Source: Patescibacteria group bacterium
GTDB lineage: Bacteria > Patescibacteriota > Minisyncoccia > Phycocordibacterales > CAIZLB01
DNA: 64,000 bases
Assembly: GCA_040384445.1 (NCBI GenBank)
Contig: JAZKJG010000001.1
Span: 7,650-71,649 of the forward strand
Reading direction: 5' to 3'
Shown: positions 28,201 to 44,139 of the stretch, piece by piece
How the letters are laid out: every line of letters starts with the position of its first letter
Numbering within the stretch: position 1 is the first letter of the stretch
Notes under the pieces: generated by a model
The model's input: only the letters and a program-made list of their open reading frames with translations
The model's database searches: none
What the model was told of the DNA's origin: nothing
Program-made: the position numbers and the translations under genes

Positions 28201-31200
28201 CGGAACATCTACTCCATCCGCAAAACTGGATGTATGGGGAAATTTGAAGGTAGGTACATCATCAACTCCAACATTGTTTGTAAACACTGCAACAGGAAAA
28301 GTTGGTATTGGATCTTCAACTCCGGTAAGTAAACTTTCTGTTGTGGCATCATCAGGGGTAGCTGTGACATTTGAAAATACAGCAACATGGTCAGGTTCAG
28401 AGTTTGCACTTGATGTAAAAGGTTACTCAAACTTAAGTGGACTCAGGATTAATGCAGCTGACGGAATTAATGCACTCTACAACGGGGCAAATACAACTCT
28501 GGGATTTACAAATAATCAAGGGTATCCAATTACGTTTTCATCATGGAATGGCACAGTAACTGAATTGATGAGAATTGATACAACAAGTGGGAAGATTGGA
28601 ATTGGAACTTCAACAGCAACGGAAATTCTTTCTGTCGCAGGAAATATCAACCTCACCGGTTCATTCAAATCTAACGGAAACGCAGGAACTCTTGGACAAG
28701 TGTTACAAACAACTGGAACAGGAGTACAGTGGGTTGCAACATCATCACTTGGAATAACGGGTGGAGGTATATCAGGAACTGTAAACTCAGGGCTGCTCGG
28801 TCAAGTTGCTTTTTATGATGCCAACGGAACAGTGGTTTCAGGAACTTCAACATTATTTATTACTGGAGAAAAACTTGGTATAGGAACTACAACTCCTGGA
28901 TACAAACTGACTGTTGACGGAGATGTGTGGCTTGGAACTACGACTCTTGCAAATGGTAATCTTGTTATTGGTAAGGATGGCTCTGTTGCATCACGAGGCA
29001 TGCTCCACTCTATTTTCCTTGGGAAAGATTCTGGAACATCTACAGCTGCTACTGGTAATTCAAACTTCTTCGGAAATGGTGCAGGACAATATGCAACAAA
29101 CGCAGATAACTCAAACTTCTTTGGATCTGGAGCAGGAGAATCTGCTACTGAAGCAGCAGGATCAAACTTCTTTGGGGCAGTGGCAGGAAGTGGAGCAACA
29201 TATGCAGCAGGATCAAACTTCTTCGGAGCTGGAGCTGGATTCTCTGCAACAGAAGCTGCATACTCAAACTTCTTCGGAGAAAATACAGGAAGTTTTGCGA
29301 CATATGCTGACAACTCAAACTTCTTTGGTGCCGCTGCAGGAAACAATGCAACAAATGCATCATCATCAAACTTCTTTGGTGCTGCCGCTGGAGACAGTGC
29401 TACAAATGCTTTCAATTCAAACTTCTTTGGAAGATTAGCTGGAGCCGGCGCAGCTAATGCAGCAAACTCAAACTTTGTGGGTTATAACGCTGGAAATAAT
29501 TCAACCAACGCTGCACTCTCAAACTTCATTGGATACAATGCTGGTAACGATGCAACAAACGCATCGTCATCAAACTTCATCGGATTCCTTGCTGGAATGC
29601 AGGCGACAAATGCATCATCATCAAACATTTTTGGATCATATGCAGGTTACCAATCAACGAATGCTGCCTACTCAAACTTCATCGGATATGGTGCAGGACA
29701 GTACGCAACAAATGCACGTAACTCTAACTTCCTAGGACTAGGAGCTGGAGGAGGAGCTGCAGGTGCATATGATTCAAACTTCTTTGGTGTGAACGCAGGA
29801 TCAAATACAAATGCATTTAGATCAAACTTTATGGGATATGAAGCAGGAAGTACTGCAACAAACGCAACCTACTCAAACTTCACTGGATATTATGCTGGAT
29901 ATGGTGCAACCAATGCAAATGACTCTAACTTTATCGGTAGAAATGCGGGATACAATGCAACAAACGCATCAACAACTAACTTCATAGGATATAATGCAGG
30001 ACAAAACGCAACGAATGCAAACTTATCAAACTATATTGGGTACTATGCAGGAAATGGAGCAACAAACGCTTCAAACGTGAATGCACTTGGTGCATATGCA
30101 GGTCAAAATGCAACGAATGCCTCAAACTCATTCTTCGTAGGATATCAAGCAGGAAATAATGCAACAAATGCAAACATGGTAACTGCTATTGGATATCTTG
30201 CAGGATCTGGTGCATCTGATGCCATATTCTCAAACTTCTTTGGATATGGAGCCGGACAAAACGCAACAAACACATCAAACTCAAACTTCTTTGGAGCTAG
30301 TGCAGGGTCAGGAGCTTCACAAGTTTCAAACTCAAACTTCTTTGGGGTAAGTGCAGGTAGTGCTGCAGTAGGTGCAAGTGCATCAAACTTCTTTGGATCT
30401 GGAGCAGGACAAAACGCAACTAACGCAGTATCTTCTAACTTCTTTGGATTTTCAACAGGATCTGGTGCAACCAATGCAATATTCTCTAACTTCTTCGGAC
30501 AATATGCAGGTCAAAATGCAACGAATGCTTCGTACTCAAATTTCTTCGGATTCAATTCGGGATATGGAGCAACTACTGCCCAGAACTCAACATTTATGGG
30601 TCCACAAGCGGGATATCAGGCTGCTAATGCTAATAATGCAATATTCCTAGGGCAAAACTCAGGATACAATGATACGGTAAATAACTCAACCAACTGGAAG
30701 TCTTCAATCCTTATTGGAGATTACACATCAACTGGAGGTTTCTCAAACTCAATCGCTATCGGTCAAGGTACAAAAAACAGTGCAACAGAGCAATTAAACT
30801 TAGGGGGCTTGATTTATGGACTGGGAATACGAGCAACAACAACACCAACTGCCACTCCTGTTTCTGGAGGTCTTGTAGGTATTGGAACTTCAACTCCAGG
30901 AACTATACTTACAATTGTTGCAGATGCTTCTGTTGATAGTGGTTTGTCGGTTATCGGTAACAATAATGGTTTCTTCGAAGGTAATATTCAAAACTTAAGT
31001 TCAGGAGTAAATGCCTCATCTGATTGGGTGGCAACAGCAAATAACGGAGATGATACCATTCATTACATTGATATGGGAATCAACGGTAGTGGAGGAGGAG
31101 CTGCACCATTTACAGGTGCTAACCAGGCGTACCTGTATTCTGTAAGTGATACACTCAACATTGGAGCATTAGGAACCGGAAATACTGTTAACTTCTATAC

Positions 31201-32719
31201 AACTGGTGGAACTTCTCCAGTAGAGAGAATGCGGATTGATAGTTTTGGAAATATTGGAATTGGAACCACAACTGTTCCTGCTTCACTATCATTGGCGAGC
31301 GCAACAACAACTGGTGATGCAATCTCAGTTCATGGACCATTAGGAACGAAACTTTTCAGTGTAAAACTTATTGCTCAAAACTTCGGAGGGCTTGTTGAAT
31401 CAGGAGCATTTATGGGTAACAACTCATTTTTTGCAGAAGAGTTTAACGTAGATACTGCGCTTATCAGTGCTGACAGTGCAGCGATTGGAGATAACGGAGG
31501 TATGTATTTTGATACAACATCTGTTACGTCAACATATTCAGCTACAGACTTCATTGGTGGATACGGAAGACTTGTGGCAAGTACCACAACGGGTGTTGGT
31601 GGATTGATTGGTTTTGGAAATGCTCAGAACAACCTTAGTTTAATGTTCTCTAAAGCAAACTTACCTGTTGTACAGATGAAAGTGAGAACAAATATTAACA
31701 ACACAACAAACGATACTTTTTGGGGGCTTATGGACCAGGCTACTGCTCCAACTGCGAACGACACGGCTCCAGCAAACGGTATATATTTCTGGAATAACAA
31801 CGCAGCAGGAGGATGGCAAGGGGTTGTGCGAAGTGGAGGTGCAAACGTAGGTACAGTAACTTGTCCAGGTGCTATCAGTACTACACAGTTTGCAATAGGA
31901 AGAATTCAGGTAGAAAGTACTTCAACCGTACGATTTTTGATTGATAACGATATTACAACTGACGGAGTTAATATGGTGGATTGTGGAACTGTGACAGGGG
32001 CAAACCCTTCTGCAGCTCTTGGAATCGCACTGTATAATATTCATACAGAAAACACTGCGACAGCAAGAAATATTGATATTGATTATATGCGAGTGTGGCA
32101 AGATGATGCGTCAACATCCTCAGATGAATCACTTGCAGGAGATGTTTCTTCAACTCCAGAAAAACTTACACAGTTCCTAGATAATGGATATCTTGTAGAC
32201 GGACTTGAATTAATGGGCAGAATTCAATCTGAAGATCAAAAAAATGTACTGGAAATTATTACGGATAAGGTGAAGAAAAATATGGAAATAGTTTCGGAAT
32301 TTGTGGCGCTTCGAGTTGTGGCAATGCGAGGATATTTTGAGGAGGTATTTACAAAGAAAATCCACACTGAAAAAATGTGTCTGAAGAAATCAGATGGTTC
32401 TGAGTATTGTGTAAATGGAGATGAGTTGCAATCAATCATGGAAGGAAAGGGTGTGGTGGTATCACCAACAACGAACCAGCCTGAAAATGTAGCCCCTACC
32501 TCTACGTCAACTTCAGATTCAGTGAGTGGTGGGGCAGCAACAAATACTGCTAACGAAGATCCTGATAGTTCCTCACCAACGGTGCAAGAGACTGAACAGC
32601 TCCCTCCTCCATCTGAAACTGTTCAGGAGCCTGCGTTTGAGCCCGAACCAGCACCAGCATCAACACCTGAACCTACTCCAACTTCGACACCAGAAGCTGC
32701 CCCTGCTCCAACAGAGTAG
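25271..32719 (+). CDS. Giant secreted repeat protein 2 (2482 aa), paralogous modules to giant gene 1, distinct C-terminal domain, Pro/Thr/Glu-rich tail
   Basis: Uninterrupted 7.4-kb ORF. Signal peptide/TM. The N-terminal domain is alignable with gene 1 (IDFNQ.L...V..G......PR..FGT). Segments 26190-26510 and 30700-30880 are ~90% identical at nt level to 14440-14790 and 19560-19740. ~32 copies of the 17-aa repeat. No SD.RLK-type chaperone block. Confidence 0.9.
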   Translation: MGTFIIKHVQKNCKKFLKTFLILGLFLMCFTAYSVVYAAFNPQINYQGKLTDASGNPVANGTYNIEFKLYTVSSGGSPIWTETRTGGDKVTITNGLFSVMLGSVNSISGIDFNQPLYLGVNIGGTGSPSYDGEMTPRKTFGTVPASFVAQTLEGYRAIQFLRSDVINSTSTGATFLKLEQAGAGAIAEFIGNTSSTILGIYSAGGGAVGIGTTTPTEKLTIANGNLLLQGEYGVKWTGGSQLYEQTVAGAGVDRMIYRPNGDRFDVIDEAGSTFMASFNVSNIQLFTAGVSRLFIDSSGNLGIGTTTQTEKLTIAGNINLTGAFKSNGNAGTLGQVLQTTGTGVQWVATSTLGISGGSLSGGTNGYLSRWTSSSTLSTGLFLDNGTVAGINATSSSYTFNVKGSGALGAFNVASSTGTSLLNVRANGYVGIGTNAAAYQLDVKADTSGITNVLNLSSSMTGAGDGTGILFSSSEGSLHARIRTSAYTGTTAGLIFEVTPSTDTLTEALRITDTGNVGIGTTTPSAKLDVWGNLKVGTSSTPILFANTATGKVGIGTVSPAHTLDLGGVSPTLNVGLYGGGGAATIRMLGEALFSFSGGTVGSTIAIGSADTSVDFDLAFHAGGSNRMYIDGATGNVGIGTTTSVELLTIAGNLNLTGALKSNGNAGTLGQILQTTGTGVQWVATSSLGISGGGGSGTVNSGLLGQVAFYSANGTAVSGTSTLFITGEKIGVGTTTVTEKLVVDGNALITGLLKGGTSANINLNGLSNNGVDFNYLNGGIFRTAETSIAGTNDIFFQGVPATTAGYTYLEAWQSAGLILGTGNSTAIIFKPNRTEYMRLTGTGDLGIGTSTPIAKLAVTGTGTTTGKAFVVANSNNTPIFTMLDNGNIGNGVGADPVSWDFHIQRTGNLYATLQSSTGHSTLRLVSATGLSPTLHFGDGSSNRWDVVSNGSNSGNLEFNSYSVGNVMSLGLTTGLVGIGTSTPSAKLDVWGNLKVGTSSTPTLFVNTATGKVGIGSSTPVSKLSVVASSGVAVTFENTATWSGSEFALDVKGYSNLSGLRINAADGINALYNGANTTLGFTNNQGYPITFSSWNGTVTELMRIDTTSGKIGIGTSTATEILSVAGNINLTGSFKSNGNAGTLGQVLQTTGTGVQWVATSSLGITGGGISGTVNSGLLGQVAFYDANGTVVSGTSTLFITGEKLGIGTTTPGYKLTVDGDVWLGTTTLANGNLVIGKDGSVASRGMLHSIFLGKDSGTSTAATGNSNFFGNGAGQYATNADNSNFFGSGAGESATEAAGSNFFGAVAGSGATYAAGSNFFGAGAGFSATEAAYSNFFGENTGSFATYADNSNFFGAAAGNNATNASSSNFFGAAAGDSATNAFNSNFFGRLAGAGAANAANSNFVGYNAGNNSTNAALSNFIGYNAGNDATNASSSNFIGFLAGMQATNASSSNIFGSYAGYQSTNAAYSNFIGYGAGQYATNARNSNFLGLGAGGGAAGAYDSNFFGVNAGSNTNAFRSNFMGYEAGSTATNATYSNFTGYYAGYGATNANDSNFIGRNAGYNATNASTTNFIGYNAGQNATNANLSNYIGYYAGNGATNASNVNALGAYAGQNATNASNSFFVGYQAGNNATNANMVTAIGYLAGSGASDAIFSNFFGYGAGQNATNTSNSNFFGASAGSGASQVSNSNFFGVSAGSAAVGASASNFFGSGAGQNATNAVSSNFFGFSTGSGATNAIFSNFFGQYAGQNATNASYSNFFGFNSGYGATTAQNSTFMGPQAGYQAANANNAIFLGQNSGYNDTVNNSTNWKSSILIGDYTSTGGFSNSIAIGQGTKNSATEQLNLGGLIYGLGIRATTTPTATPVSGGLVGIGTSTPGTILTIVADASVDSGLSVIGNNNGFFEGNIQNLSSGVNASSDWVATANNGDDTIHYIDMGINGSGGGAAPFTGANQAYLYSVSDTLNIGALGTGNTVNFYTTGGTSPVERMRIDSFGNIGIGTTTVPASLSLASATTTGDAISVHGPLGTKLFSVKLIAQNFGGLVESGAFMGNNSFFAEEFNVDTALISADSAAIGDNGGMYFDTTSVTSTYSATDFIGGYGRLVASTTTGVGGLIGFGNAQNNLSLMFSKANLPVVQMKVRTNINNTTNDTFWGLMDQATAPTANDTAPANGIYFWNNNAAGGWQGVVRSGGANVGTVTCPGAISTTQFAIGRIQVESTSTVRFLIDNDITTDGVNMVDCGTVTGANPSAALGIALYNIHTENTATARNIDIDYMRVWQDDASTSSDESLAGDVSSTPEKLTQFLDNGYLVDGLELMGRIQSEDQKNVLEIITDKVKKNMEIVSEFVALRVVAMRGYFEEVFTKKIHTEKMCLKKSDGSEYCVNGDELQSIMEGKGVVVSPTTNQPENVAPTSTSTSDSVSGGAATNTANEDPDSSSPTVQETEQLPPPSETVQEPAFEPEPAPASTPEPTPTSTPEAAPAPTE
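29060..30670 (+). repeat. Array of ~32 17-aa (51-bp) SNFFG..AG..ATNA repeats inside giant gene 2
   Basis: Same periodic motif as 16030-19520. Confidence 0.9.
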
Positions 32720-32724
32720 TGGAG

Positions 32725-32920
32725 AAATATGGGTGGTATGGTAAAATATAAGGGTCTCCTAATAGTCGGCTTAGACCTTTCTTATCGGGGAGTCTACCGT
32801 AGTTAAAGAAACCGTGGTTTCTTTCTCGCGACACCCACCTAGCTTAAACACTAGGTCCGACTACTTGGGAGGCTTTATCAATACTTACTTTATGTTATAT
32901 TAAGTACTGATAAAGCCTAT
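32725..32920 (+). ncRNA. Candidate structured RNA / cis-regulatory leader of unknown class upstream of the VanZ-like gene
   Basis: GC content (~47%) is above local background. Perfect hairpin aaagaaacc-gtg-ggtttcttt (32806-32826). Hairpin cctag-cttaaaca-ctagg. Long-range complementarity ctcctaatagtcggc (32756-32770) with gtccgactacttgggag (32864-32880). 16-bp hairpin ggctttatcaatactt / aagtactgataaagcc ending 3 nt before the ATG at 32921. Confidence 0.35.
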
Positions 32921-33331
32921 ATGACACCAGAGATATATTCATGGAAAAAACCATTTTTTAGCGCAGCAGCATGTTTATTTGTGCTATTGATATTGAACGA
33001 TGTTGCAGTTCAACTTGCTTTATATTGGGGATACAAATGGCTTGATATACCATTTCATTTCATTGGAGGATTTGGAGTAGGTTTGGCAAGTATTGGACTA
33101 CTACGGATCGCATTTCCAGGTGAAAAATATATAAATAGTCCTCAGCTTTTATATACTGTACTTCTTACATTGTTTGTTGGTGCTTCATGGGAAGCAGTAG
33201 AAACGTATTATGACGTGTCTGTTCTCTTTGGTGGAAATTTCTGGTTTGATACATATAAAGATTTGCTTATGGATACACTTGGTGGGATACTTAGCTACAT
33301 ATGTTTCCATCCGCGCAAAAAAAATCTGTAA
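32921..33331 (+). CDS. VanZ-like family small membrane protein (136 aa)
   Basis: Four predicted TM helices. C-terminal WEAVE...DTYKDLLMDTLGGILSY matches the VanZ E..Q...R...D.LaNtlGa.lG motif pattern. Confidence 0.5.
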   Translation: MTPEIYSWKKPFFSAAACLFVLLILNDVAVQLALYWGYKWLDIPFHFIGGFGVGLASIGLLRIAFPGEKYINSPQLLYTVLLTLFVGASWEAVETYYDVSVLFGGNFWFDTYKDLLMDTLGGILSYICFHPRKKNL

Positions 33332-34728
33332 ATACAGAGACACAAGAATCAGCCGAAATTACATTTTGTGGAGGAGTGTCCTCAGTAACAGGAGCAAATT
33401 TTCTGCTCAATATTAAAAAACAAGGTACTCAAAAAAAGATACTTGTAGATTGTGGTATGGAACAGGGAAGTGAGAAAGCAAAGATTTATAATGCATCTCC
33501 ATTTATATTTGATCCAAAAGAAATCGAAATACTTCTTGTAACTCATGCACATATGGATCATATTGGACTCATTCCAAAACTTGTTCGACATGGCTTCAGA
33601 GGTGTTATATATAGTACTCCTGAGACCCGAGACTTGTGTGTGTTTATGCTTGATGATGCACTAAAATTAGTTACCCAAGAAGCAGAAGAACATCATGTTG
33701 ATCCTCTCTATGAGGCAGAAGATTTAAAGCTTGCATTTACACTGTGGAAAACAATCCCATACCATACTGAGTTTAGTTTAGGTGATGATGTGAATGTGTA
33801 TCTCAAAGATGCAGGTCATGTCCTCGGGTCATCAATGTTCGAGATTCGTGTACCTTTAAACGGTATCACGCGTAAGTTTTTGTTTACAGGTGATCTTGGA
33901 AATAGTCCATGTCCGATTTTAAAAGATACTGAATCAATAGAAGGAGTTGACTATGTTGTTATGGAAAGTGTGTACGGCGATAGAAATCATGAAGATAAAG
34001 CGGAGCGACTGCAGAAATTGCAAATGAATATCGAAGATATTATCGAACGAAACGGAGTGTTGCTTATCCCATCATTTTCTCTCGAAAAAACACAAGAGGT
34101 ACTTTTTGAAATAAATAAATTATTCGAAGATGGACATGTCCGAGAGATTCCTGTATATCTCGATTCACCACTCGCAAGTAAGCTGCTCCCTATTTATAAA
34201 AAATATACAAAAGATTATAATAAAGAAGCAACAGACAGAAGAATGAAAGGTGATGATATTTTAAATTTTAAAACACTTAAAATTATCGGGAGTGCAGAAG
34301 AATCAAAGGCAATAAAGTTTTCTAAAAATCCAAAGATTATTATGGCAGGTTCAGGTATGTCTACTGGAGGAAGAATTATGCACCACGAATTAAATTATCT
34401 TGATGATGACAATACGATTATCTTATTCATGGGATTTCAGGCGCTTGGAACCTTAGGACGTCAGATTCGGGATGGTGAAAAAAACGTACGAATATATAAT
34501 CATGATGTACATATTCGGGCTGAGATTCGTACAATTGACGGGTATTCAGGGCACAAGGATTCTGATAACCTTCAGGAGTTTGTTTCTACTGCTGCTGATA
34601 CTGTGAAAAAAATCTTTGTAACTATGGGTGAGACAAAATCAGCGCTCTTCTTAGTACAGCGCCTCAGAGACTATCAGGGACTTGATGCGATGCATCCTGA
34701 ACAAGGTCAGACAATTGTGCTACATTAA
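33301..34728 (+). CDS. MBL-fold metallo-hydrolase, beta-CASP ribonuclease family (475 aa)
   Basis: [17 protein letters not shown]...ILVDCGM motif 1. HAHMDHIG (HxHxDH) motif 2. Length and C-terminal domain consistent with beta-CASP RNases. The start overlaps the preceding gene by 31 nt, so a later start is possible. Confidence 0.8.
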
Positions 34729-34736
34729 TATCGTAC

Positions 34737-35612
34737 ATGACCCCTGCTCAGATACAATCAAGAATAGATGAAATAGAGCTTGCAATGCTTGAGAGTGATT
34801 TTTGGGTGGATAGCATAAAGGCTCAAGGGATCATGAAAGAATTGCAACAACTGAAAGCAGATCTTGTTGCTGGAGATTTTTCTCAAGTTGATGCAATCGT
34901 GAGTATTATATCTGGTGCAGGAGGTGACGATGCAGAAGATTTTGTAGGAATGCTTTTTTCAATGTATCAAAAGTTTTGTCAGAAAAATGGATGGGGGATG
35001 AGTATACTTCATGATCAACCTAATACTCTTGGAGGATATAAACAAATCATGTTTGAAATAAAAGGCAGGGGATCATATGGAATATTAAAAAATGAATCAG
35101 GTGTTCATCGACTTGTGCGAACATCTCCGTTTAATTCAAAAGGATTACGCCATACTTCTTTTGCACTTGTTGAAGTAGTTCCAAAACTTGACAAGGTGCT
35201 TGACGATTTCAAGTTGGATGAAAGTGAATTAGATATCACAACTCAGAAAGCTGGAGGCCCTGGAGGACAAAACGTAAACAAAAGAGAAACGGCAGTGCGT
35301 ATTGTTCATAAGCCAACAGGTATTTCTGTTCATGTTACAACTGAACGAGCACAAGCACAAAACAAAGAAAAGGCACTTCATATTATCCAAGCAAAACTTT
35401 TGAAAAAAAGAGATGATGATATGAAAGCAAAAGAAAAAGGATTGTCGACTACTGCGCATATTCAAATTGAGTGGGGATCACAGATTAGATCGTATGTGTT
35501 GCATCCATACAAGATGGTGAAAGATCATAGAACAGAATATGAGACAAGTTCGGTGGATGATGTTCTTGAGGGTGATATTGAAGGATTTTTGGAGGCTGAG
35601 AAGGGGTTGTAA
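34737..35612 (+). CDS. prfB: Peptide chain release factor 2 (short form, 291 aa, no frameshift site visible)
   Basis: SPF tripeptide ([10 protein letters not shown]) and GGQ motif ([10 protein letters not shown]). The start lies 8 nt after the upstream stop, so no room for a frameshifted leader. Confidence 0.85.
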
Positions 35613-35623
35613 AATAAAAAACA

Positions 35624-35648
35624 CCTCACCTGGATTGAACAGGTGAGG
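35624..35648. terminator. Bidirectional intrinsic terminator between convergent prfB and the 35663-36214 gene
   Basis: Perfect 9-bp stem cctcacctg/caggtgagg, 7-nt loop. A-run upstream (T-run on minus strand) and T-rich tract downstream. Confidence 0.6.
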
Positions 35649-35662
35649 GAAGTTTGATTTTG

Positions 35663-36214
35663 TCATTTGCCTGACAACACTTTATCAAAGAGTCCGGCAA
35701 GATTACCAATGGCAGGTTGAGGAGCAGGTGGTTCGACAATAATTACTTTTACTTGTGTTACTACGAACTCAGGAAGTGTTGCTGCAATCTGATTTCTCAG
35801 TCGAGCTATCTGCATGATCCCTGCTTCCTTATGTTCGGAAGATGCTTTTCTGTGGGCAAACTCATCTTTGGATTCAAAGTTGGCTTCGGCTTTGAACCAG
35901 GAATATTTTCTTTTTTCTTTTTTACCAAGCTCGAAAGGCTCTCCGTTCTGTTGAGGAATAAATCCTCTGAGAAAACTTTTTGTCAAAGCTTGTACTGCTT
36001 CTCGTTCATTTCCGCCTTGTTTGAACAGTTCGGACAAGTGCATGCTGTGTGGTCCAATACCGACGGCAACAGTTGCAACGCAGGGGAAACAGAAGGCTAA
36101 AATAAGCATGTCTTGTGTGGCATCGTACCCACGAGGAATATGAATATCCTTTTCCAGTCCATTACGTAACCAGTAAATCAAATCTGGGCGACCACTAATT
36201 AGTTTTGATTCCAT
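35663..36214 (-). CDS. Hypothetical protein (183 aa), no family recognised
   Basis: ORF with protein-like composition. Terminator hairpin downstream on the minus strand. Preceded by a long structured leader ending in its own terminator. Confidence 0.5.
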   Translation of the reverse strand: MESKLISGRPDLIYWLRNGLEKDIHIPRGYDATQDMLILAFCFPCVATVAVGIGPHSMHLSELFKQGGNEREAVQALTKSFLRGFIPQQNGEPFELGKKEKRKYSWFKAEANFESKDEFAHRKASSEHKEAGIMQIARLRNQIAATLPEFVVTQVKVIIVEPPAPQPAIGNLAGLFDKVLSGK

Positions 36215-36302
36215 ACAAAGTTCTTTCTATTGTTGAGTTGAATTGACTATTTGTATAATACTATTAATTACTATATTTGTCAAATTTAATAATGAATATG
36301 GC

Positions 36303-36341
36303 AAAATAAAAAACCCGCAGCCCTGGTGAGAAGGCTGCGGG
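36303..36341 (-). terminator. Intrinsic terminator on the minus strand (9-bp GC-rich stem cccgcagcc/ggctgcggg + U-tract)
   Basis: On the minus strand the hairpin is followed by ttttttatttt (plus-strand aaaataaaaaa at 36304-36313). Confidence 0.7.
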
Positions 36342-36636
36342 TAAACTATTTCGAGTACATGCCTGTAAAGGTTGTCGTTTACTTTAGTTTATTGGGAAAA
36401 TGTGCAAGGTTTACGGTGATGAATCTTCATCGGGCGCAGTATCGATTGAGGCGATCAGGGGTCCCAAAACCACCTCCCCTCTTATTTGTAGTCGTAGACG
36501 TGGTTGTGGGTGTATCCGGGTAGAAAATTACCCGATGGCGTTGACGCAGACGATTGGATGTCATAGTCGTATTGGCTATATGGAAATGGAGACTGTCAGA
36601 GTCGACCGTGCAAGAAACAAGGTTCTCGTAAGCTCC
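36303..36636 (-). ncRNA. Candidate ~330-nt minus-strand leader RNA / riboregulator or stand-alone ncRNA (class unknown)
   Basis: Bounded by a consensus promoter (36644-36672) and a strong intrinsic terminator (36303-36341). GC ~48% versus ~38% background. Multiple local hairpins, for example aucggguaauuuucuacccggau. Confidence 0.4.
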
Positions 36637-36643
36637 ATCCGTC

Positions 36644-36672
36644 AGTATATGACCCTGCAATCCGTATGTCAA
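36644..36672 (-). promoter_or_regulatory. sigma70-type promoter on the minus strand: TTGACA-17 nt-TATACT
   Basis: Reverse complement of 36644-36672 reads ttgaca tacggattgcagggtca tatact. Perfect -35, 17-nt spacer, 5/6 -10. Confidence 0.6.
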
Positions 36673-36708
36673 CTATTTTCTATAAATAGCAAACGATACA
36701 ATATATCC

Positions 36709-38412
36709 ATGCAACCCCACAAAACAAAAAACAAGGTACTGAGTACTAAGAGTAGAAAATATATTTTTGTCATCGGTGGGGTAATGTCGGGAGTTGGAAA
36801 AGGAATCGCTACAAGTTCTATTGGTCTCATTTTAAAGTCTAAAGGTTATAAAATAAATTTAATAAAAGCTGACCCATACCTCAACGTCGATGCGGGAACT
36901 ATGAATCCCACAGAACACGGTGAGGTTTTTGTTATGCAGAACGGACTTGAGACTGATCAGGATATGGGAAACTATGAACGTTTTTTAAATGAAGATATTA
37001 GTCAGTTGAACTATATGACAAGTGGAATGGTATATAAGTCGGTGATCGATAGAGAACGGGCGCTCGGATACGGAGGAAAATGTGTAGAAGCAATTCCACA
37101 TGTTCGAGATGAAATTATTTCTCGATTTGAAAAAACAGCAAACGAACACGATAGTGATATTACGCTTGTTGAGATTGGGGGAACTATTGGTGACTATCAA
37201 AACGTGATGTTTATGGAAGCGGCACGAACCATGAAAATTCAACACCCAAAAGATGTGATTGTGATTGTTGTATCGTATGTTCCAATTCCAGGAACAATAG
37301 GTGAGATGAAATCAAAGCCAACCCAAAATGCTATTCGACAGTTAAATGGATATGGTTTGCATGCTGATTTTGTGATTGCACGAAGTGAAGTACCACTGGA
37401 CGAAAAACGAAAAGAAAAAATTGCAGTATCATGCAACGTTCCTCAGCAAAATGTAATCTCTGCACCAGACATTAAAAGTATTTATGATGTGCCAATAAAC
37501 TTTGAAAAAGATAAAATTGCAGATGCTCTCCTTGAGAGTTTGTATATGGATGCTTCTAAGGTAGGAAAAGCTGCTCGGGAAAAAGGTGCAGAGCTATGGA
37601 AAGGCTGGAATTCATTTGTGAAAAAAGTACATGCAAAAAGAACTAAGACTGTTCGTATTGCGATGATTGGAAAATACTTTGATAGCGGTGACTTTACGTT
37701 GTCTGACTCCTATCTATCTGTTATAGAGGCACTTAAGACTGCTGCAGCACACGCTGGAGCACAGATTGAGATAGAGTGGATTGACAGTAAGAAGATTGAG
37801 AAAGGAACGGTTAAATTATCTGAAGTATTTAAACGATGTGGAGGATTAATTGTTCCTGGAGGATTCGGTACGACTGGTGTTGAAGGGATTCTTTCGGCAA
37901 TTCAGTATGTTCGAGAGAAGAAAATTCCATTCCTTGGGATTTGTTATGGAATGCAACTTGCGGTTATCGAATATGCACGAACAGTTTGCAAATTAAAAGG
38001 AGCACATACAACAGAGATTGAAAAAACTGCAGCACATAAAATTGTAGATATTATGGAATCTCAGAAAAGTAATTTAACACAGTTCGTTATGGGAGGAAGT
38101 ATGAGGCTTGGTTCGTATACATGTAAATTAGCGAAGGGAAGTTTGTGTGAAAAATTATATAAATCAAATTCTGTAATTGAAAGACATAGGCATCGATATG
38201 AAGTTAATAATGAATATGTTCCACAGTTGGAGAAGGCGGGGTTGGTATTTTCTGGAACTTCACCGGACGGAAAGTTGATGGAGATGATTGAGTTGCCTAC
38301 AAGTAAACATCCGTATTTTACTGCGACTCAAGCACATCCTGAGTTTCGTTCAAGACCAGTAGGTAGTCATCCGCTTTTTGATGGGTTGATTAAGGCGGTG
38401 ATGGGGAGATAA
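36709..38412 (+). CDS. pyrG: CTP synthase (567 aa; start chosen at the ATG matching the conserved N-terminus, not the upstream in-frame ATG at 36400)
   Basis: The KYIFVIGGVMSGVGKGI P-loop-like N-terminus typical of PyrG. C-terminal glutamine amidotransferase block LGICYGMQ with catalytic Cys and HPEF. Confidence 0.9.
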   Translation: MQPHKTKNKVLSTKSRKYIFVIGGVMSGVGKGIATSSIGLILKSKGYKINLIKADPYLNVDAGTMNPTEHGEVFVMQNGLETDQDMGNYERFLNEDISQLNYMTSGMVYKSVIDRERALGYGGKCVEAIPHVRDEIISRFEKTANEHDSDITLVEIGGTIGDYQNVMFMEAARTMKIQHPKDVIVIVVSYVPIPGTIGEMKSKPTQNAIRQLNGYGLHADFVIARSEVPLDEKRKEKIAVSCNVPQQNVISAPDIKSIYDVPINFEKDKIADALLESLYMDASKVGKAAREKGAELWKGWNSFVKKVHAKRTKTVRIAMIGKYFDSGDFTLSDSYLSVIEALKTAAAHAGAQIEIEWIDSKKIEKGTVKLSEVFKRCGGLIVPGGFGTTGVEGILSAIQYVREKKIPFLGICYGMQLAVIEYARTVCKLKGAHTTEIEKTAAHKIVDIMESQKSNLTQFVMGGSMRLGSYTCKLAKGSLCEKLYKSNSVIERHRHRYEVNNEYVPQLEKAGLVFSGTSPDGKLMEMIELPTSKHPYFTATQAHPEFRSRPVGSHPLFDGLIKAVMGR

Positions 38413-38428
38413 ATGATATACTAATTCG

Positions 38429-39151
38429 ATGAATCCTAAAATAAAATATTCTTTGATTACTCTTTTAATTATTATTGTGATCACTTTATCATTCGGGATA
38501 ATTCGAATGTACTTGTTAGTTAAGAAAACAAAAGTTCTCATAAAAAATGCAGTACCATATGAACGATCACTTCCAGAAAGTGATATGAAAATTCTAGTTC
38601 TGGGAGATAGTACAGCATATGGAACGGGATCTCTAAAAAATTCTGAAACAACTGCAGGGAGGCTGGGAGAATTATTTCCACAAGCGGATGTAAAGACTAT
38701 TGTTGAAAATGGACTAAAGCTCGAAGGGTTATTGGAGAAAGTAAGTAGTATTGATCCGAATGAAAAGTATTCTATTATTCTTATTCAAATTGGAGCGAAT
38801 GATATTATTCGACTTACGAATATGAAAGATATAGAAGCTCGTATTGACACGCTTGTTGACAAACTAAGTAAGCAAACCAAGAAGCTTATTTTTATGCATT
38901 CAGGAAATGTGGGTGACTCAGAATTTTTCCCATCTTATGTTCAACCAATTCTTACGAGTAGATCTAATAAGGTTCGAGAAATATATATAAAGACTGCAGA
39001 AAAGCATAACGCATTTTATGTTGATGTAATTGGATCAGATATTCCAAAGATTATAGAAGTTGATCCAAGTAAATATTATGCGAATGATTTACTGCATTTA
39101 TCAGGTGAAGGGTATGGGTTATGGTTTGATGAGATTAGAAAGGGGTTATAA
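38429..39151 (+). CDS. SGNH/GDSL-family hydrolase with N-terminal TM anchor (240 aa)
   Basis: LVLGDSTAYGTG (GDS block I). IQIGANDI (block III). NDLLHLSGEG (D..H block V). Confidence 0.7.
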   Translation: MNPKIKYSLITLLIIIVITLSFGIIRMYLLVKKTKVLIKNAVPYERSLPESDMKILVLGDSTAYGTGSLKNSETTAGRLGELFPQADVKTIVENGLKLEGLLEKVSSIDPNEKYSIILIQIGANDIIRLTNMKDIEARIDTLVDKLSKQTKKLIFMHSGNVGDSEFFPSYVQPILTSRSNKVREIYIKTAEKHNAFYVDVIGSDIPKIIEVDPSKYYANDLLHLSGEGYGLWFDEIRKGL

Positions 39152-39166
39152 TGCTATACTAAACCT

Positions 39167-39568
39167 ATGAAAAAAGGATTCCACACAAACATAGAAAAAG
39201 ACACTATTGAAAATAGTAATTTTAGAAAAGTACTCTACACTGCGAAACATATGCAGTTAGTGTTAATGTCTTTAAAACCAAACGAAGATATTGGTTCTGA
39301 AGTTCATCCTGACAATGATCAATTTTTCCGATTTGATAAAGGAGAAGGAAAGGTGATTGTAGGTGAGACAGAGTATCTTGTAAAAGATGGAGATACTGTT
39401 ATTGTTCCAGCAGGAACTGAACATAATGTGATTAACACATCATCTGATGAGGATTTAAAATTATATACGATATATACACCATCGCATCATAAAGATGGAA
39501 TTGTCCGAGCGACGAAGCAAGAGGCGATGGACAACGAGGAAGATTTTGATGGAGTGACCACGGAGTAA
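39167..39568 (+). CDS. Cupin-domain protein (133 aa)
   Basis: G.EVHPDNDQFF...GEG....GE.EY.VKDGDTVIVPAGTEHNV two-motif cupin signature. Confidence 0.65.
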   Translation: MKKGFHTNIEKDTIENSNFRKVLYTAKHMQLVLMSLKPNEDIGSEVHPDNDQFFRFDKGEGKVIVGETEYLVKDGDTVIVPAGTEHNVINTSSDEDLKLYTIYTPSHHKDGIVRATKQEAMDNEEDFDGVTTE

Positions 39569-39575
39569 AAGAAAA

Positions 39576-39612
39576 GCCCTCACAAGATGTAAAGTCCGTG
39601 AGGGCTTTTCTT
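39576..39612. terminator. Bidirectional intrinsic terminator between convergent genes
   Basis: gccctcac / gtgagggc 8-bp stem with T-runs on both strands. Confidence 0.5.
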
Positions 39613-39628
39613 GTGAGGGCAGTGGAAC

Positions 39629-39970
39629 CTATTTTTTATCCCAAGCTCGTGCGAAAACAACGACATTGCTGTAGTGGAGTCCGTAAGGAGAATCGATATT
39701 CCAGCAAATGTTGTTCTCAGCAATGCTCTGAATGGCGGACTTGAAATTTTCGCTTTCAGGGTTATTTTGTGAGATTTGATACTCACACCATTTCCGAGCT
39801 TTTTGCTTGCACTCATGGCTGATCTCCATTCGTGTGCTGCCGTTTTCGGAAACAAGCACGGTGACTTCCTGGTTCCTTTTGGCGGTTGCTGCTCCTGCCC
39901 TGAAGGCAAAGAGTCCAGAAATAATAATTCCCAAAGCAAATAGTAAACAGTAAATATCCATTTTCTTCAT
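39629..39970 (-). CDS. Small secreted hypothetical protein (113 aa)
   Basis: Clear signal peptide MKKMDIYCLLFALGIIISGLFAFRAGAATA. Preferred over the overlapping out-of-frame ORF 39580-39939. Confidence 0.5.
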   Translation of the reverse strand: MKKMDIYCLLFALGIIISGLFAFRAGAATAKRNQEVTVLVSENGSTRMEISHECKQKARKWCEYQISQNNPESENFKSAIQSIAENNICWNIDSPYGLHYSNVVVFARAWDKK

Positions 39971-40050
39971 GATTGAATGTTGTATACAAATTGTTTGTGA
40001 TCCTTGTACATTATATCATAAACAACACAAAAGTCAACTATAACTCAACC

Positions 40051-40081
40051 AAAAAACCCGAGGGTGCAACTCGGGTTTTTT
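40051..40081. terminator. Bidirectional intrinsic terminator (acccgag-ggtgcaa-ctcgggt flanked by A-run and T-run)
   Basis: Directly downstream of the minus-strand gene ending at 40102. Confidence 0.6.
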
Positions 40082-40101
40082 AGTATCTATCTCAACATTA
40101 A

Positions 40102-41010
40102 TTAAAATGGAGAGTAGATAACGTATTCTGCAGAAGTCTGAACATTTCCACTTACATCAGTTGATTGTAAGATAAGAAATCTTGGAGTTGTTGAAGCTAA
40201 TAGAGGTAAATCAAATGAATGATTTGTCTGTAGTGTTGATGAACTCATGTTTGGAGACGTATTTACATTGAGTGAACTTGTTCCATAGAATAGTTTTGAT
40301 GTTGCAGGCTCATTTGTTTTCCATGAGATCTTCAATAGGTTTGAAGTGATTGCAGTCATGATGTTACTAATCACTGGAGCAGTTGTATCACTTGAAGTAG
40401 ATGTTGTGAATGAGTTAACTCCAGATAGAGTTACATTTCCAGAACTATCTCGAACAGCAAGTACTACGTAGTATGTTGTGTTTGGAATTAGATTTCGTAG
40501 TACTACTGAACCGTTAGTTCGTACTCCTACTTCATCTACCATACTCATACTTCCGTTTGTACTGTATACACTGTTAAGCATTCCTCCTGTTGAGGTTGTA
40601 GTTGCTTTTACAAGTACTGGTGTAGTTGTTCCGTAAAATACAACACCTCGAGTTTTTTCATTTGTAGTCCAGTTTGTGTCAGCTCGTACACTTTGTGGAT
40701 TTACATTAAATGAGTTAATTACTGGAGCAACTGTATCAACAGTTGATGATGCGTGTGGAATATAGTTTAACTTTTTAAAGATTCCGTATGGAAGCTTACA
40801 GTTGGCAGAAATAGAGATTTCTCCTTTGTTTTCTTTCCAACCATTTTTTATAAGCTGTCCGAATGCATGGACACATGTATTGTTTTTCTTATTTTCTTTT
40901 TTGTCTTTGTCATGTTCCTTCGCGAAGCCTAGCGCAGGAGTCAGAACGAGTGCGAGCATGAAAGCTAGACTTGTTATAGTTTTTACTTTTGTATTGCGTA
41001 TTATTTTCAT
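40102..41010 (-). CDS. Secreted protein with two FN3-like domains (302 aa)
   Basis: Signal peptide. Repeated TVAPVI..F.V.P......W.T.E.T...V.YGT / TTAPVISN......L.ISWKTNEPATSKLFYGTS segments. Confidence 0.6.
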   Translation of the reverse strand: MKIIRNTKVKTITSLAFMLALVLTPALGFAKEHDKDKKENKKNNTCVHAFGQLIKNGWKENKGEISISANCKLPYGIFKKLNYIPHASSTVDTVAPVINSFNVNPQSVRADTNWTTNEKTRGVVFYGTTTPVLVKATTTSTGGMLNSVYSTNGSMSMVDEVGVRTNGSVVLRNLIPNTTYYVVLAVRDSSGNVTLSGVNSFTTSTSSDTTAPVISNIMTAITSNLLKISWKTNEPATSKLFYGTSSLNVNTSPNMSSSTLQTNHSFDLPLLASTTPRFLILQSTDVSGNVQTSAEYVIYSPF

Positions 41011-41140
41011 ATGTTTATTTTATGTAGGTATTTAGTTGATAAATAATTGCACATATCTTTGCCCTACATAGGTTATGACGGGTGGGGGTGACAACTCTTA
41101 CATGCTATGTAAGAATGAGCATATTGACACGTCTCTATAT

Positions 41141-41662
41141 ATGAAGCAACAACATATGACCCAAAAATTCATAGACCTTCACAATGCAAACTCAGATGCG
41201 CTCTTTCGCTACTGCTACTTCAGGGTGTCTGACAGGGAACAGGCTGTTGACCTAGTTCAGGAGACGTTTTTGAAGCTCTGGGATGCCTTTGTGAAGGATT
41301 CTACAGAGATTAAGAATGCCAGAGCCTTACTCTATAAAATAGCCTCAAACCTTATTATAGATTGGTATAGAAAGAAGAAGGCTGTATCCTTGGATGAACT
41401 CCTTGATTTCGAACAGACGGAAGCATATCTCAATCTTGCTGATGGATCTCACGAAATGATGGAAATTGAAAGTGATGGAAAAAAAGCGCTTCAGTACATT
41501 TCAAAACTTGAACCAACATATCAACGCGTCGTCTATCTGCGATATGTAGAAGATCTATCGCCAAAAGAAATTGCAGAAGTTGTCGGACTCTCAGTCAATG
41601 TTGTCTCGGTACGAATTAATAGAGGGATACAAGAATTAAAAAAAATATATGGATTACAATAA
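41141..41662 (+). CDS. ECF-type RNA polymerase sigma-70 family factor (start set at MKQQHMT; ORF is open from 41075)
   Basis: Region 2 (DLVQETFLKLWDAF) and region 4 HTH (YQRVVYLRYVEDLSPKEIAEVVGLSVNVVSVRINRGIQELKK). Confidence 0.8.
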   Translation: MKQQHMTQKFIDLHNANSDALFRYCYFRVSDREQAVDLVQETFLKLWDAFVKDSTEIKNARALLYKIASNLIIDWYRKKKAVSLDELLDFEQTEAYLNLADGSHEMMEIESDGKKALQYISKLEPTYQRVVYLRYVEDLSPKEIAEVVGLSVNVVSVRINRGIQELKKIYGLQ

Positions 41663-42332
41663 CCCATTTAAAAAAGGAATACATGATATTAAAAAACTTT
41701 CTCTTTCTACACATGAAAAAGAGAGTATGTTGGCTCGTTTGACGCAACATACTGTAAACAGTCCAATCAAAGAAGCGTTGAGATCAACGTGGTTTACGTT
41801 TGCATATAAACACACCTATGCTTTGGCGCTTGCTGCTGTGGTGGTTATTATTGGTGGAAATATTTCATATGCTGCAGCACAGTCGTTGCCAGGAGATTTA
41901 CTGTATCCGATTAAGATTCATGTAAATGAAAAAGTACAGGGAGTTTTGAAGATTACTCCAAAAGCTACGGCAAAATGGGAAGAAAAGAAAATAGAAAAAA
42001 GACTTGATGAAGTAAATACACTTGTTGAGAAAGGAAAATTTGATTCTGAAAAAAGAATACAGGTTGAGAAAGAGGTGAAGAAAAATGTTGATACAATTCG
42101 TAAACAAAAAAATAACTCTAAAAATGTAAACCTATCAGAAACAGTTGATGTGAAGCTGAAGAAAAATCAGCAAAACAATGAGGTAAAGATTCTTGAAGGA
42201 AAAATTCAAGACGAATTAAAATCATTCAAAAACAAGGATACAGACGAAGACAAAGAAAACAAAAAGGAAGAAAAGGTTAAGCTGAAACTTGACCGTCAGA
42301 ATCTTTTTGAGCAATCAAAGCATCAAGAGTAA
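41649..42332 (+). CDS. Putative anti-sigma factor, single-pass membrane protein with Lys-rich extracytoplasmic domain (227 aa)
   Basis: Overlaps the sigma gene by 14 nt. ~55-aa cytoplasmic N-terminus, TM helix ALALAAVVVIIGGNISYAAA, coiled-coil-like K/E-rich tail. Confidence 0.5.
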   Translation: MDYNNPFKKGIHDIKKLSLSTHEKESMLARLTQHTVNSPIKEALRSTWFTFAYKHTYALALAAVVVIIGGNISYAAAQSLPGDLLYPIKIHVNEKVQGVLKITPKATAKWEEKKIEKRLDEVNTLVEKGKFDSEKRIQVEKEVKKNVDTIRKQKNNSKNVNLSETVDVKLKKNQQNNEVKILEGKIQDELKSFKNKDTDEDKENKKEEKVKLKLDRQNLFEQSKHQE

Positions 42333-42687
42333 ATCCATCTTTTCCGTGAAGGAAAACAGCAACAGCTGCAACTGCTATTCCAAAGTCTCGCACGCCGGTG
42401 GCATCAAATCCTACAATATATACAATCTCGAACATATGAAGTGCAAGCAGTAGTGCTGCCGTCCGTGTCCAAAATCCAAGTAGTAGTGCAGTACCAAAGA
42501 CGATTTCAAAGATACCATTTAAAAGCACAAGCGTCTCTGCATTTATCTTACTTAGATTCACGATACTTTCAGGTACATACAATACCCACTGTACCTGATC
42601 TGAAACCTGACTATATCCAAACCAGAGGAATACAAGTGATATTCCGATTCTAAGTATTGTTGGTGCGAGATATGCAAATTTATTCAT
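42277..42687 (-). CDS. DoxX-family membrane protein (136 aa)
   Basis: LRIGISLVFLWFGYSQV N-terminal DoxX signature. Four TM helices. Confidence 0.7.
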   Translation of the reverse strand: MNKFAYLAPTILRIGISLVFLWFGYSQVSDQVQWVLYVPESIVNLSKINAETLVLLNGIFEIVFGTALLLGFWTRTAALLLALHMFEIVYIVGFDATGVRDFGIAVAAVAVFLHGKDGFTLDALIAQKDSDGQVSA

Positions 42688-42707
42688 ATCTACATTCTAC
42701 CATACTG

Positions 42708-43574
42708 CTAAAACAAACTTCCAGGAAAATTTGGAGAAATAAAAGCGGATCCATCAGCTCGAACAAGAATATACTCAAAAGACACTGAACCTTTTAGTTT
42801 TTCCGGATCAGTAAAAAAGAGGGCGGTTGTTAATCCGTCAGCGAGCATGGTTGAATCTGCAACAACCCAGATCGCAATAATATCTCTTGGAGATTCTTGA
42901 GTTTCTGGATTGATAATGTGATGATACTTATTCCATGCTCGTCGATTACCTGAAGAACCACAAATACTACAATTTAAAATTTCTGCAATCCCTATGGCCT
43001 GTTCTGGATTTTCCGGGTGTTCTAATCCTACGCGAATTGCTTCGCCTCGGTGATGCATATCTCCTCCAGCATCCACTGTAAAATCTTGAATACCAGCAGC
43101 CATTATCATTTCACTTACAACATCTACAATATATCCTTTTCCGAGTGCCCCAAAATCAAGTTGAATCGGAACAAATGTTGTGAGTGTATTTGTTTCGTCA
43201 TCATATTTCATAACATTATCCCACAACAGAGTTGGTTGAATAATTTCTTTCGGAGTGAGGGAATACTCTGGATCATATCCAGTATCTACAAGTGTCTGAC
43301 CGATAAGCGGTGTAACTTTTCCATCTGAAAGATCATACAGTTTTCTGTACATGCCAAAAAGTATTTTTCCGTCTGGGGGAAATTGATAGATACCAGCCTC
43401 ATCTGAAATTTGTGTTACGAGCGAATCTTTTCTAAATCGTGAGTATTGAGATTCAAACAGTTCGATTCGCCCACGTATTGCAGAAAAAATACTGGAAGTA
43501 TCAGGTGTACTCTCAGTATCTTTAATGTCTATCTGCCAAGTTGTGCCAATCGCTTTGAATGTTTGGCTTGGCAT
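42708..43574 (-). CDS. apbE: FAD:protein FMN transferase (ApbE family), 288 aa
   Basis: Family-typical length and blocks: TTWQI (N-terminal beta-strand), GALGKGYIVD, DAGGDM. Confidence 0.8.
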   Translation of the reverse strand: MPSQTFKAIGTTWQIDIKDTESTPDTSSIFSAIRGRIELFESQYSRFRKDSLVTQISDEAGIYQFPPDGKILFGMYRKLYDLSDGKVTPLIGQTLVDTGYDPEYSLTPKEIIQPTLLWDNVMKYDDETNTLTTFVPIQLDFGALGKGYIVDVVSEMIMAAGIQDFTVDAGGDMHHRGEAIRVGLEHPENPEQAIGIAEILNCSICGSSGNRRAWNKYHHIINPETQESPRDIIAIWVVADSTMLADGLTTALFFTDPEKLKGSVSFEYILVRADGSAFISPNFPGSLF

Positions 43575-43579
43575 ATGAA

Positions 43580-44089: not shown

Positions 44090-44139
44090 TATACGCACAT
44101 ATACTACTTTTTTCAAACAATTAGGGGTATACTGTATAC

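Follow-up and report, generated by a model that had tools for sequence, protein, structure and literature searches.

A candidate stand-alone small RNA gene next to pyrG, representing a narrow, fast-evolving structured RNA family in Patescibacteria

Stand-alone small RNAs (sRNAs) are a known kind of bacterial gene product. Those of the RoxS type carry C-rich motifs that pair with the Shine-Dalgarno (SD) sequences of mRNAs, and type III toxin-antitoxin systems of the ToxIN kind are arranged as a promoter, an antitoxin RNA, a terminator and a toxin of about 170-190 amino acids (aa). In Bacillus subtilis, RoxS has its own sponge, RosA, an RNA that mimics an SD sequence (PMC8216469). The element that we describe here lies in a 64,000-nucleotide stretch of contig JAZKJG010000001.1 from a Patescibacteria group bacterium (the window, by which we mean the whole stretch analysed), on the minus strand (-), between the CTP synthase gene pyrG and the gene of a 183-aa orphan protein. 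We propose, with a probability of about 0.7, that this locus encodes a stable, structured sRNA which is independent, acts in trans and belongs to a new and narrow family. The novelty of the family is that of a well-supported candidate: neither Rfam 15 nor the phage, plasmid and viral collections that were searched contain it.

The RoxS/RsaE-type sRNAs of the Firmicutes are like the predicted RNA in having a stand-alone gene, a sigma-70-type promoter, a Rho-independent terminator, structured ends and one short conserved motif on a hairpin, and also in their narrow taxonomy and in evolving fast elsewhere. The present motif, which we call M, is of the opposite polarity, being G-rich and SD-like, and the RNA of the window has about three times their length, resembles them neither in sequence nor by Rfam match, and belongs to a genome with almost no SD sequences to target. 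RosA resembles it as a non-coding RNA that could titrate a C-rich partner, which is a functional analogy only; unlike in the RosA system, no C-rich sRNA partner is visible here, and no obvious invariant partner other than the 3' tail of 16S rRNA offers itself. Riboswitch, T-box and attenuator leaders share with the locus a promoter, a GC-rich, hairpin-rich RNA, a terminator and possible alternative pairings round a central G-rich strand; here, in contrast to such leaders, a downstream gene is not obligatory, the downstream genes have their own promoters, and no family signature is found.

The earlier note on this DNA had claimed a TTGACA-17-TATACT promoter on the minus strand, a GC-rich stem followed by a U-tract, and a GC-enriched, hairpin-rich interior, and all of these are present. 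The promoter (36672-36644) consists of the -35 hexamer TTGACA (36667..36672, -), identical at all homologous loci, and, after a 17-nt spacer, of the -10 hexamer TATACT (36644..36649, -), with 11 of 12 promoter matches; transcription is predicted to start at about 36640-36637. The intrinsic terminator (36303..36342, -) has a 12-bp stem with 8 G-C pairs (36342-36313) and then a U-tract, its sequence being ACCCGCAGCC-TTCTCA-CCAGGGCTGCGGGT followed by TTTTTTATTTT, down to 36303; it ranks top, with the most G-C pairs, among the terminator-like matches listed for 30000-45000. The RNA thus bracketed is about 335 nt long. Its GC content is 0.46-0.49 over 36300-36600 against about 0.37 nearby, and the minus strand folds at -93.8 kcal/mol (z = -3.8), a stability equalled by none of 100 shuffles, when the plus strand (+) across the identical stretch reaches only z = -1.35; the homologous RNA strands of loci L004 and L165 give z = -4.7 and -6.2. 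By itself, the promoter match is weak evidence, little beyond chance (five matches of at least 11/12 were seen in the 64 kb and about two are expected), and the significance of the locus therefore depends on its conservation.

That conservation is found next to pyrG in six further distinct contigs (L003, L002, L004, L165/L166, L171/L172 and L174), which were retrieved via the two relatives of the 183-aa protein and via the closest relatives of pyrG. L003 is a sister strain and L002 has 55% identity in the 183-aa homologue; the pyrG identity to the window is 89% in L004, 87% in L165/L166 and 82% in both L171/L172 and L174. Every member has a TTGACA box, a 17-nt spacer and a -10 box that reads TATACT in L003, L002, L004 and L165 and CATACT in L171 and L174, then a hairpin from the predicted start and an intrinsic terminator 320-390 nt further on. 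The terminator stem covaries across the window, L003 and L002, and terminators occupy the same place in L004, L165, L171 and L174. Counted from the -35 box of the RNA, the ATG of pyrG lies at 37 nt in the window, 37 nt in L004 and 38 nt in L165. As judged from these sequences, the cross-contig conservation of the whole promoter-RNA-terminator unit is the decisive evidence for a gene.

The predicted RNA family is narrow, being confined to Patescibacteria of a Paceibacteria-like lineage, and fast-evolving. The unit is absent in the equally close relatives L164, L167, L168, L169/170 and L173, among which L164 keeps a remnant of about 100 nt with an intact -35 box and a -10 box mutated from TATACT to TGTATT, a sign of gene decay. 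Genome and metagenome scans based on pyrG listed at least 160 loci, nearly all at 54-61% identity, three at 73% and one at 89%, and only this last one, L004, has the RNA near pyrG; of about 165 more distant Patescibacteria, none has the RNA in the vicinity of pyrG. Built on the 5' half of the RNA, the covariance model R1, run on 1.13 Mb from about 170 Patescibacteria pyrG loci, returned its seed members only (46-62 bits) and, even without filters, still missed L171 and L174, whose membership is based on position, promoter, P1 and P2 (helices described below), plus M in L174. Phage and plasmid records contain nothing similar to the RNA, and a viral collection gave only 15- and 16-mer matches, at chance level and not extending, so that a phage or plasmid origin was rejected. 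The template of a diversity-generating retroelement, or a second copy of the RNA, was likewise discarded: neither the RNA nor a repeat resembling a variable region occurs elsewhere in the window.

From 5' to 3' the RNA is predicted to consist of P1, a C/A-rich linker, P2, P3, a second linker, M with its masking helix, a variable region, a hairpin domain and the terminator. P1 (36582..36640, -) is a long 5'-terminal stem-loop which begins at the predicted transcription start in all seven members, and its base helix, AUGGAG/CUCCAU, covaries across lineages; its distal part (36594-36633) is hypervariable. The comparison with the sister strain L003 illustrates this, 10 of the 14 differences in the RNA falling in the 40 nt of distal P1, including a compensatory exchange from UGU/GCA to UAU/AUA; the remaining differences, spread over some 300 nt, include two at 36572-36576 and one in the terminator. 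The single-stranded linker J12 (36571..36581, -; with P1b, GUCUCCAUUUCCAUAUAGCCAAU) is near-identical in L002, and the equivalent position is C/A-rich in L004, L165, L171 and L174. In the P2 hairpin (36550..36570, -; ACGA...UCGU, with the loop motif AUGACAUCCA, that is AUGA-A-CCA), all five pairs are doubly changed in a hand alignment, and its equivalents in L171 (GCGUC/GAUGC) and L174 (GCAU/AUGC) were recognised by inspection. The P3 hairpin (36517..36534, -; CGGGUA-AUUUUC-UACCCG) has compensatory changes at five of its six pairs, its stems being GGUAG/CUACC in L002, GGAGGC/GCCUCC in L004, GGGCAC/GUGCCC in L165 and CGGAGC/GCUUCG in L171. The helix or helices masking M span 36448..36510 (-), either an upstream C-rich strand (36510-36500) pairing with 36473-36463, or the M region with a downstream CCCC...CCUC strand (36460-36448). 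The 3' conserved block (36342..36409, -) has a closing helix AAACUA/UAGUUU (36390-36385 with 36348-36343) and a small hairpin (36375-36357); this block and P1b-P2 are the two stretches in which the window and L002 agree best, and the conserved columns of alignment A4 are nearly continuous in it. A long hairpin domain right before the terminator is also present in L004, L165 and L174.

In an alignment of P1-P3 from five lineages, standard pairs fill 96.5% of the cells and 13 of the 17 pairs are changed on both sides; none of 500 shuffles matches this covariation, and registers slid along the alignment are only 34-42% paired. Three lines of support are independent of this alignment, namely the fold z-scores of the homologues, the differences between the window and L003, and the helices of L171, which lies outside the alignment and has, in the same order, P1 as GUGGAG/CUCCAU, P2 as GCGUC/GAUGC and P3 as CGGAGC/GCUUCG. 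The divergence between the window and L003 over 35600-36640 is a mosaic: prfB and a neighbouring beta-CASP gene differ by about 4%, for the most part at third codon positions, and the 183-aa gene with the greater part of the RNA by about 0.4%. This pattern suggests a recent recombination or sweep of the segment, to which a hypervariable hairpin tip would be added.

Motif M (GAGGGGAGGUGG, consensus GAAAGGRGGUGG; 36470..36481, -) accounts for 9 of the 21 columns that are invariant in alignment A3, and does so within 12 of its 125 columns; its variants are GAAAGGGGGUGG in L002 and L165, GAAAGGAGGUGG in L004 and GGAAGGGGGUGG in L174. The segment AGAGGGGAGGUGG, which the earlier note had called loosely SAM-I-like, turns out to be this SD-like motif and no SAM-I element. 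With G-U pairs allowed, M is the reverse complement of 14-15 nt of the canonical 16S 3' tail GGAUCACCUCCUUUCU. Among the 127,966 18-nt windows of the 64 kb it is the best site for pairing with the anti-SD sequence (-23.2 kcal/mol and 15 contiguous pairs, for a mean over all windows of -4.0 and a standard deviation of 2.5 kcal/mol), and the next three sites lie within long open reading frames (ORFs). The motif is also the top anti-SD site of the L002, L004, L165 and L174 RNAs (-22 to -25 kcal/mol), and the complementarity amounts to 14-15 contiguous pairs in five lineages, values which assume the canonical tail and concern a motif that is, by prediction, masked internally. In 1.15 Mb of Patescibacteria loci the 12-mer pattern GRRRGGRGGTGR has 15 matches, eight of which are within the RNA family. 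Predictions for every member pair the GGUGG of M, with a probability of 0.8-1.0, to a partner strand that varies both in sequence and in side, and the A/G changes within M all keep the pairing to U. The constancy of M against a changing internal partner strand suggests that it pairs with something outside the RNA that does not vary. The mRNAs of the window offer M chance-level matches only. The heptamer GGAGGTG is enriched in the window, and its use as an SD sequence was considered and rejected since none of the 14 other copies stands ahead of a gene start; their flanks are runs of glycine codons.

The genome that carries this motif looks SD-poor and largely leaderless, to judge from its rare SD motifs and the frequent TAnnnT boxes close to ATG codons. 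An SD-like 4-mer stands upstream of only 3 of 29 long ORFs of the window, and a TAnnnT box, often TATACT, ends 5-9 nt before the ATG in 16 of 38 long ORFs as against 6% of internal ATGs; TATACT is a common -10 box of the apparently leaderless genes of this genome. Apparently leaderless starts lie, for example, at 36697-36711, 38429, 44785, 51781, 53911 and 56422 (+) and at 50456 and 62061 (-).

The first of these is pyrG itself. Its ATG is at 36709, its 567-aa product is also that given by NCBI (P0003), and the Pfam match starts at residue 17. The -10 box TACAAT (36697-36702) ends 6 nt before this ATG (box and start codon, 36697..36711, +), and the arrangement TA(C/G/A)AAT-N6-ATG precedes pyrG in 10 of the 11 loci listed, the exception being L173, called with an upstream GTG start. 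So close and conserved a box makes pyrG probably leaderless, and what the earlier note had described as its long upstream region is no leader of pyrG. As read from the sequence, the promoters of pyrG and of the predicted RNA are back to back. Some pipelines call a 670-aa CTP synthase which includes an in-frame extension, the open frame 36400-36708 (+, 103 codons); this frame lies antisense to the RNA, and only the translated promoter hexamers in it are conserved in relatives, so that the longer call is, on these comparisons, a mis-annotation. On the plus strand the -35 box of the RNA reads TGTCAA (36667-36672), about 37 nt before the pyrG ATG and 24 nt before its -10 box. This position is kept in L004, L164, L165, L167, L168, L169, L171, L174 and L175, relatives without the RNA included; TGTCAA may contribute to the expression of pyrG in its own right, or may be a divergent -35 box that has survived. 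A base-pairing action of the RNA on pyrG was also considered and set aside, its complementarity to the 5' end of pyrG being no better than that of shuffled controls in five genomes.

Several other explanations have to be weighed against that of a trans-acting sRNA, and two of them bear on what the RNA is. The earlier note had placed beside an independent sRNA the reading of a cis-acting leader, be it riboswitch, T-box or attenuator, which would govern read-through into a downstream gene on the same strand; the order promoter, structured RNA, terminator, gene in the window and L002 is what such a leader requires, a co-directional gene also comes after the RNA in L174 and L171, and M could pair alternatively with an upstream or a downstream C-rich strand. 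The far side of the locus speaks for the independent sRNA. The terminator does lie upstream of the 183-aa gene (35663-36214, -), though not immediately, contrary to what had been stated: 88 nt separate the two and contain a second near-consensus promoter, TTGACA-17-TATTAT (36255..36283, -), which is outside the RNA and belongs to the orphan gene, so that this gene needs no read-through. In L004 the homologue is flanked by pyrG and by the 3' end of prfB, which is convergent with it, the 183-aa gene being absent, and in L165 an unrelated, convergent 184-aa gene ends opposite the terminator; neither locus has a co-directional gene after the RNA. The 183/179-aa gene is the far-side neighbour in the window, L003 and L002, and in L003 it is frameshifted by a 1-nt deletion while the RNA is intact. 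In L174 a co-directional lipoprotein gene lies beyond the terminator with its own 11/12 promoter, and L171 has a 12/12 promoter at the matching place; the downstream genes, where present, are mutually unrelated, each with an 11-12/12 promoter past the terminator. Only the adjacency to pyrG is constant among the RNA-bearing contigs. The varied far-side neighbours and the L003 frameshift rule out an obligatory leader function, and the loci where no gene follows on the RNA strand, together with the separate promoter of the 183-aa gene, argue that the predicted RNA is an independent gene and the leader of neither neighbouring gene. Known leaders gave nothing either. The whole window has no match in Rfam 15 at the gathering score, and permissive searches (E <= 10 on 36100-36800 and E <= 5 on L002, L004, L165 and L171) returned terminator-like noise only, in agreement with the failure of the first reading to recognise T-box, riboswitch, tmRNA (transfer-messenger RNA), RNase P or SRP (signal recognition particle) signatures. 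A T-box leader (RF00230) was rejected for want of a covariance-model match in the window or in four homologous loci, the SAM-I riboswitch (RF00162) and the other riboswitch classes of Rfam 15 because none matched even at permissive E-values, and a generic leader because dependence on a downstream gene fails in L004 and L165 and at the promoter 36283-36255. We consider a leader very improbable. The other reading, a highly diverged universal housekeeping RNA (RNase P RNA, tmRNA, SRP RNA or 6S RNA), would account for a strong promoter, a terminator and a length of about 335 nt, which fit RNase P RNA or tmRNA, in a group whose RNAs are often divergent and in a 64-kb window where no such RNA was found elsewhere. 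It is extremely improbable in view of the absence of any Rfam match at E <= 10 for the window RNA or four homologues and of any tmRNA found by ARAGORN, of the lack of 5'-3' end pairing, P4-type conserved sequence or tag frame, of its absence or decay at this locus in close relatives, and of an evolution far faster than that of the universal RNAs. Taken singly, tmRNA was dismissed on the ARAGORN and Rfam results and because the 3' end is a terminator, the 5' end a local hairpin and the candidate frame unconserved between the window and L002; RNase P RNA (RF00010/RF00011), because no fold pairs the RNA end to end and Rfam has no match at E <= 10, the conserved P4 sequences being absent on inspection of the window RNA; and 6S RNA (RF00013), because Rfam has no match and the folds are multi-domain with a local 5' hairpin.

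Two further explanations would leave the RNA itself without a role, or with a different one. It may be the act of transcription that matters, a strong divergent promoter tuning the weak, -35-less promoter of pyrG by competition or supercoiling and producing an incidental transcript; the -35 box of the RNA does stand beside the place expected for that of pyrG, about 37 nt from the ATG, TGTCAA is kept even in L164, L167-L169 and L175, which lack the RNA, and the body of the RNA diverges fast. A by-product, however, would not keep compensatory changes, a strand-specific stability, an invariant motif and a strong terminator, and in L171 the RNA promoter and pyrG lie on either side of a further unit of about 300 nt, all of which makes this explanation unlikely. 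The locus could otherwise encode a small protein, or have a dual function, through a leaderless micro-ORF beginning at the very 5' end or through an ORF driven by M as a very strong SD sequence. In all seven members the predicted 5' end (36640-36638 and equivalents) coincides with a start codon, AUG in four, GUG in two and UUG in one, 4-5 nt past the -10 box, in a genome where leaderless starts look common; in both the window and L165, a UUG or GUG lies 5 nt past the GGAGG/GGGGG core of M. The ORFs opened by this codon are unconserved and 14-24 codons long, as expected by chance, and their peptides have no mutual similarity; in L003 a 2-nt insertion shifts every frame of the RNA and moves this one to an ORF of 81 codons; the 81-aa ORF has no Pfam match; no start codon lies near M in L002; and the 5' codon is buried in P1, of whose sequence RUGGRG it is probably a by-product, though a notable one in a leaderless genome. 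No reading frame is conserved in the RNA, indels of 1 and 4 nt separating the window from L002 inside the best-conserved block. We regard a coding function as improbable.

A type III antitoxin was also among the candidates examined, the window and L002 sharing with ToxIN-like systems the layout of a structured RNA, a terminator and an orphan protein of 183 or 179 aa. It was rejected: such antitoxin RNAs consist of tandem direct repeats of about 35-45 nt ahead of a ToxN-family toxin, but the present RNA has no tandem or direct repeats, and the protein has its own promoter and is missing (L004, L165) or frameshifted (L003) where the RNA stays. A search of 5.8 billion proteins gave just two relatives of this protein, it matches nothing in Pfam, NCBIfam, PHROG or PADLOC, and its single-sequence AlphaFold model is unusable (mean pLDDT, the predicted local distance difference test score, of 37). 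From the position of its promoter its mRNA would have a 5' untranslated region of about 34 nt, unlike that of most window genes.

The sRNA that we propose is intergenic, with its own promoter and terminator, a conserved structure and no conserved ORF, features of a generic stand-alone sRNA from which we infer its transcription; of the two readings offered by the earlier note, it is that of the independent sRNA which the conserved unit and the varying neighbours uphold. The RNA would be transcribed from its own strong sigma-70-type promoter and would end at the intrinsic terminator, with its 5' end locked in P1 and its 3' end in the terminator hairpin. Hairpin-locked ends are the usual design of long-lived bacterial sRNAs. 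It would act in trans, M being most likely its functional site, partly masked by the variable C-rich strand, and M would pair with an invariant, pyrimidine-rich partner, for which the best candidate is the 16S 3' tail with its anti-SD region.

A number of observations weigh against this proposal. The RNA has been lost in the close relatives L164, L167-L170 and L173 and is thus dispensable, members whose pyrG is 82-89% identical to that of the window are barely alignable as RNA, and the family amounts to seven distinct sequences, perhaps five or six lineages, all of them from metagenome assemblies. P3 is weak or absent in L174, and M is missing from L171. The full-length members are too divergent for MAFFT, and the 125-column alignment was normalised by hand, trimmed and registered to the proposed helices, so that its statistics lean towards the structure. 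M is itself predicted to be base-paired inside the RNA and may be purely structural. Finally, the canonical 16S tail is assumed for this clade, none of the 175 loci containing 16S.

In a further step, the sRNA would be a ribosome-directed regulator whose motif M pairs with 14-15 nt of the 16S 3' tail and occupies the anti-SD site; we regard this as a speculative lead, and an unlikely one. The exposed GAAA of M would serve as a toehold, the remainder being masked by the C-rich strand, and the covarying P1-P3 domain would control the exposure of M. What would be modulated is the pool or state of the 30S subunits, either idle or hibernating subunits or the choice between 30S-type and 70S-type initiation. 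To our knowledge, no RNA occupying the anti-SD site in such a way has been described. The nearest conceptual parallels are 6S RNA and Ms1, stable RNAs which occupy a universal site of the expression machinery, RNA polymerase in their case and possibly the anti-SD tail here; they differ from the present RNA, for which the binding is hypothetical, in that it has no closing 5'-3' helix, no central bubble and no Rfam match. According to one report, lineages without SD sequences keep, few exceptions aside, a canonical anti-SD, and that of Flavobacterium is sequestered within the ribosome (PMC7797042). The Bacteroidetes ribosome would be comparable in serving a genome that lacks SD sequences, with the canonical anti-SD assumed for the present clade; sequestration of the anti-SD by an RNA, as hypothesised here and in contrast to Flavobacterium, would be new. 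If the ribosome-directed action is real, the 16S 3' tail of the clade is expected to read ...CACCUCCUUUC.

Other features of the window and of the homologous loci deserve mention. The prfB gene (34737-35612, +) encodes an N-terminally truncated release factor 2 of 291 aa, which covers model positions 108-350 of 353 and scores below the family cut-off; this form is conserved in relatives. The beta-CASP/metallo-beta-lactamase nuclease (33301-34728, +) scores 394 bits against the NCBIfam type VII CRISPR Cas14 model, whose cut-off is 800, and 290 bits against aCPSF1; its synteny with prfB, seen in L004 too, makes it probably a housekeeping RNase, and the window has no CRISPR-related Rfam family. 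No tRNA, no rRNA and no Rfam family at gathering score was found in the 64 kb. Two very large ORFs, of 4577 aa from 7575 and of 2482 aa from 25271, hold several of the GGAGGTG copies. In L171 (2600-3000, -), the additional unit that separates pyrG from the RNA promoter is about 300 nt long and has its own terminator (2625-2605) and a short, very basic ORF, where L174 has just about 120 nt (2390-2500). The ORFs called on the plus strand at L174:1404-1868 and L171:1535-2116 were probably assigned to the wrong strand; the minus strand of L174 has the lipoprotein-like ORF (MNKFISILVAILASTLFTSC...) behind its 11/12 promoter, right after the RNA terminator. In L165, a tRNA (53.8 bits; 3700-3770, +) lies within a called ORF of 205 aa.

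In conclusion, our observations emphasize that lineage-specific structured sRNAs would exist, and turn over quickly, in uncultivated Patescibacteria (the candidate phyla radiation, CPR), a group with tiny genomes. Our literature searches found no paper on a regulatory RNA in CPR/Patescibacteria and nothing relevant on leaderless or SD usage in them. For annotation, the finding corrects the wrong 670-aa pyrG call antisense to the RNA. The oddity of the locus is that its sole invariant element is the best anti-SD complement of 64 kb, in a genome seemingly past SD-led initiation. If M is functional, this RNA would address directly the tail with which the ribosome binds mRNA.

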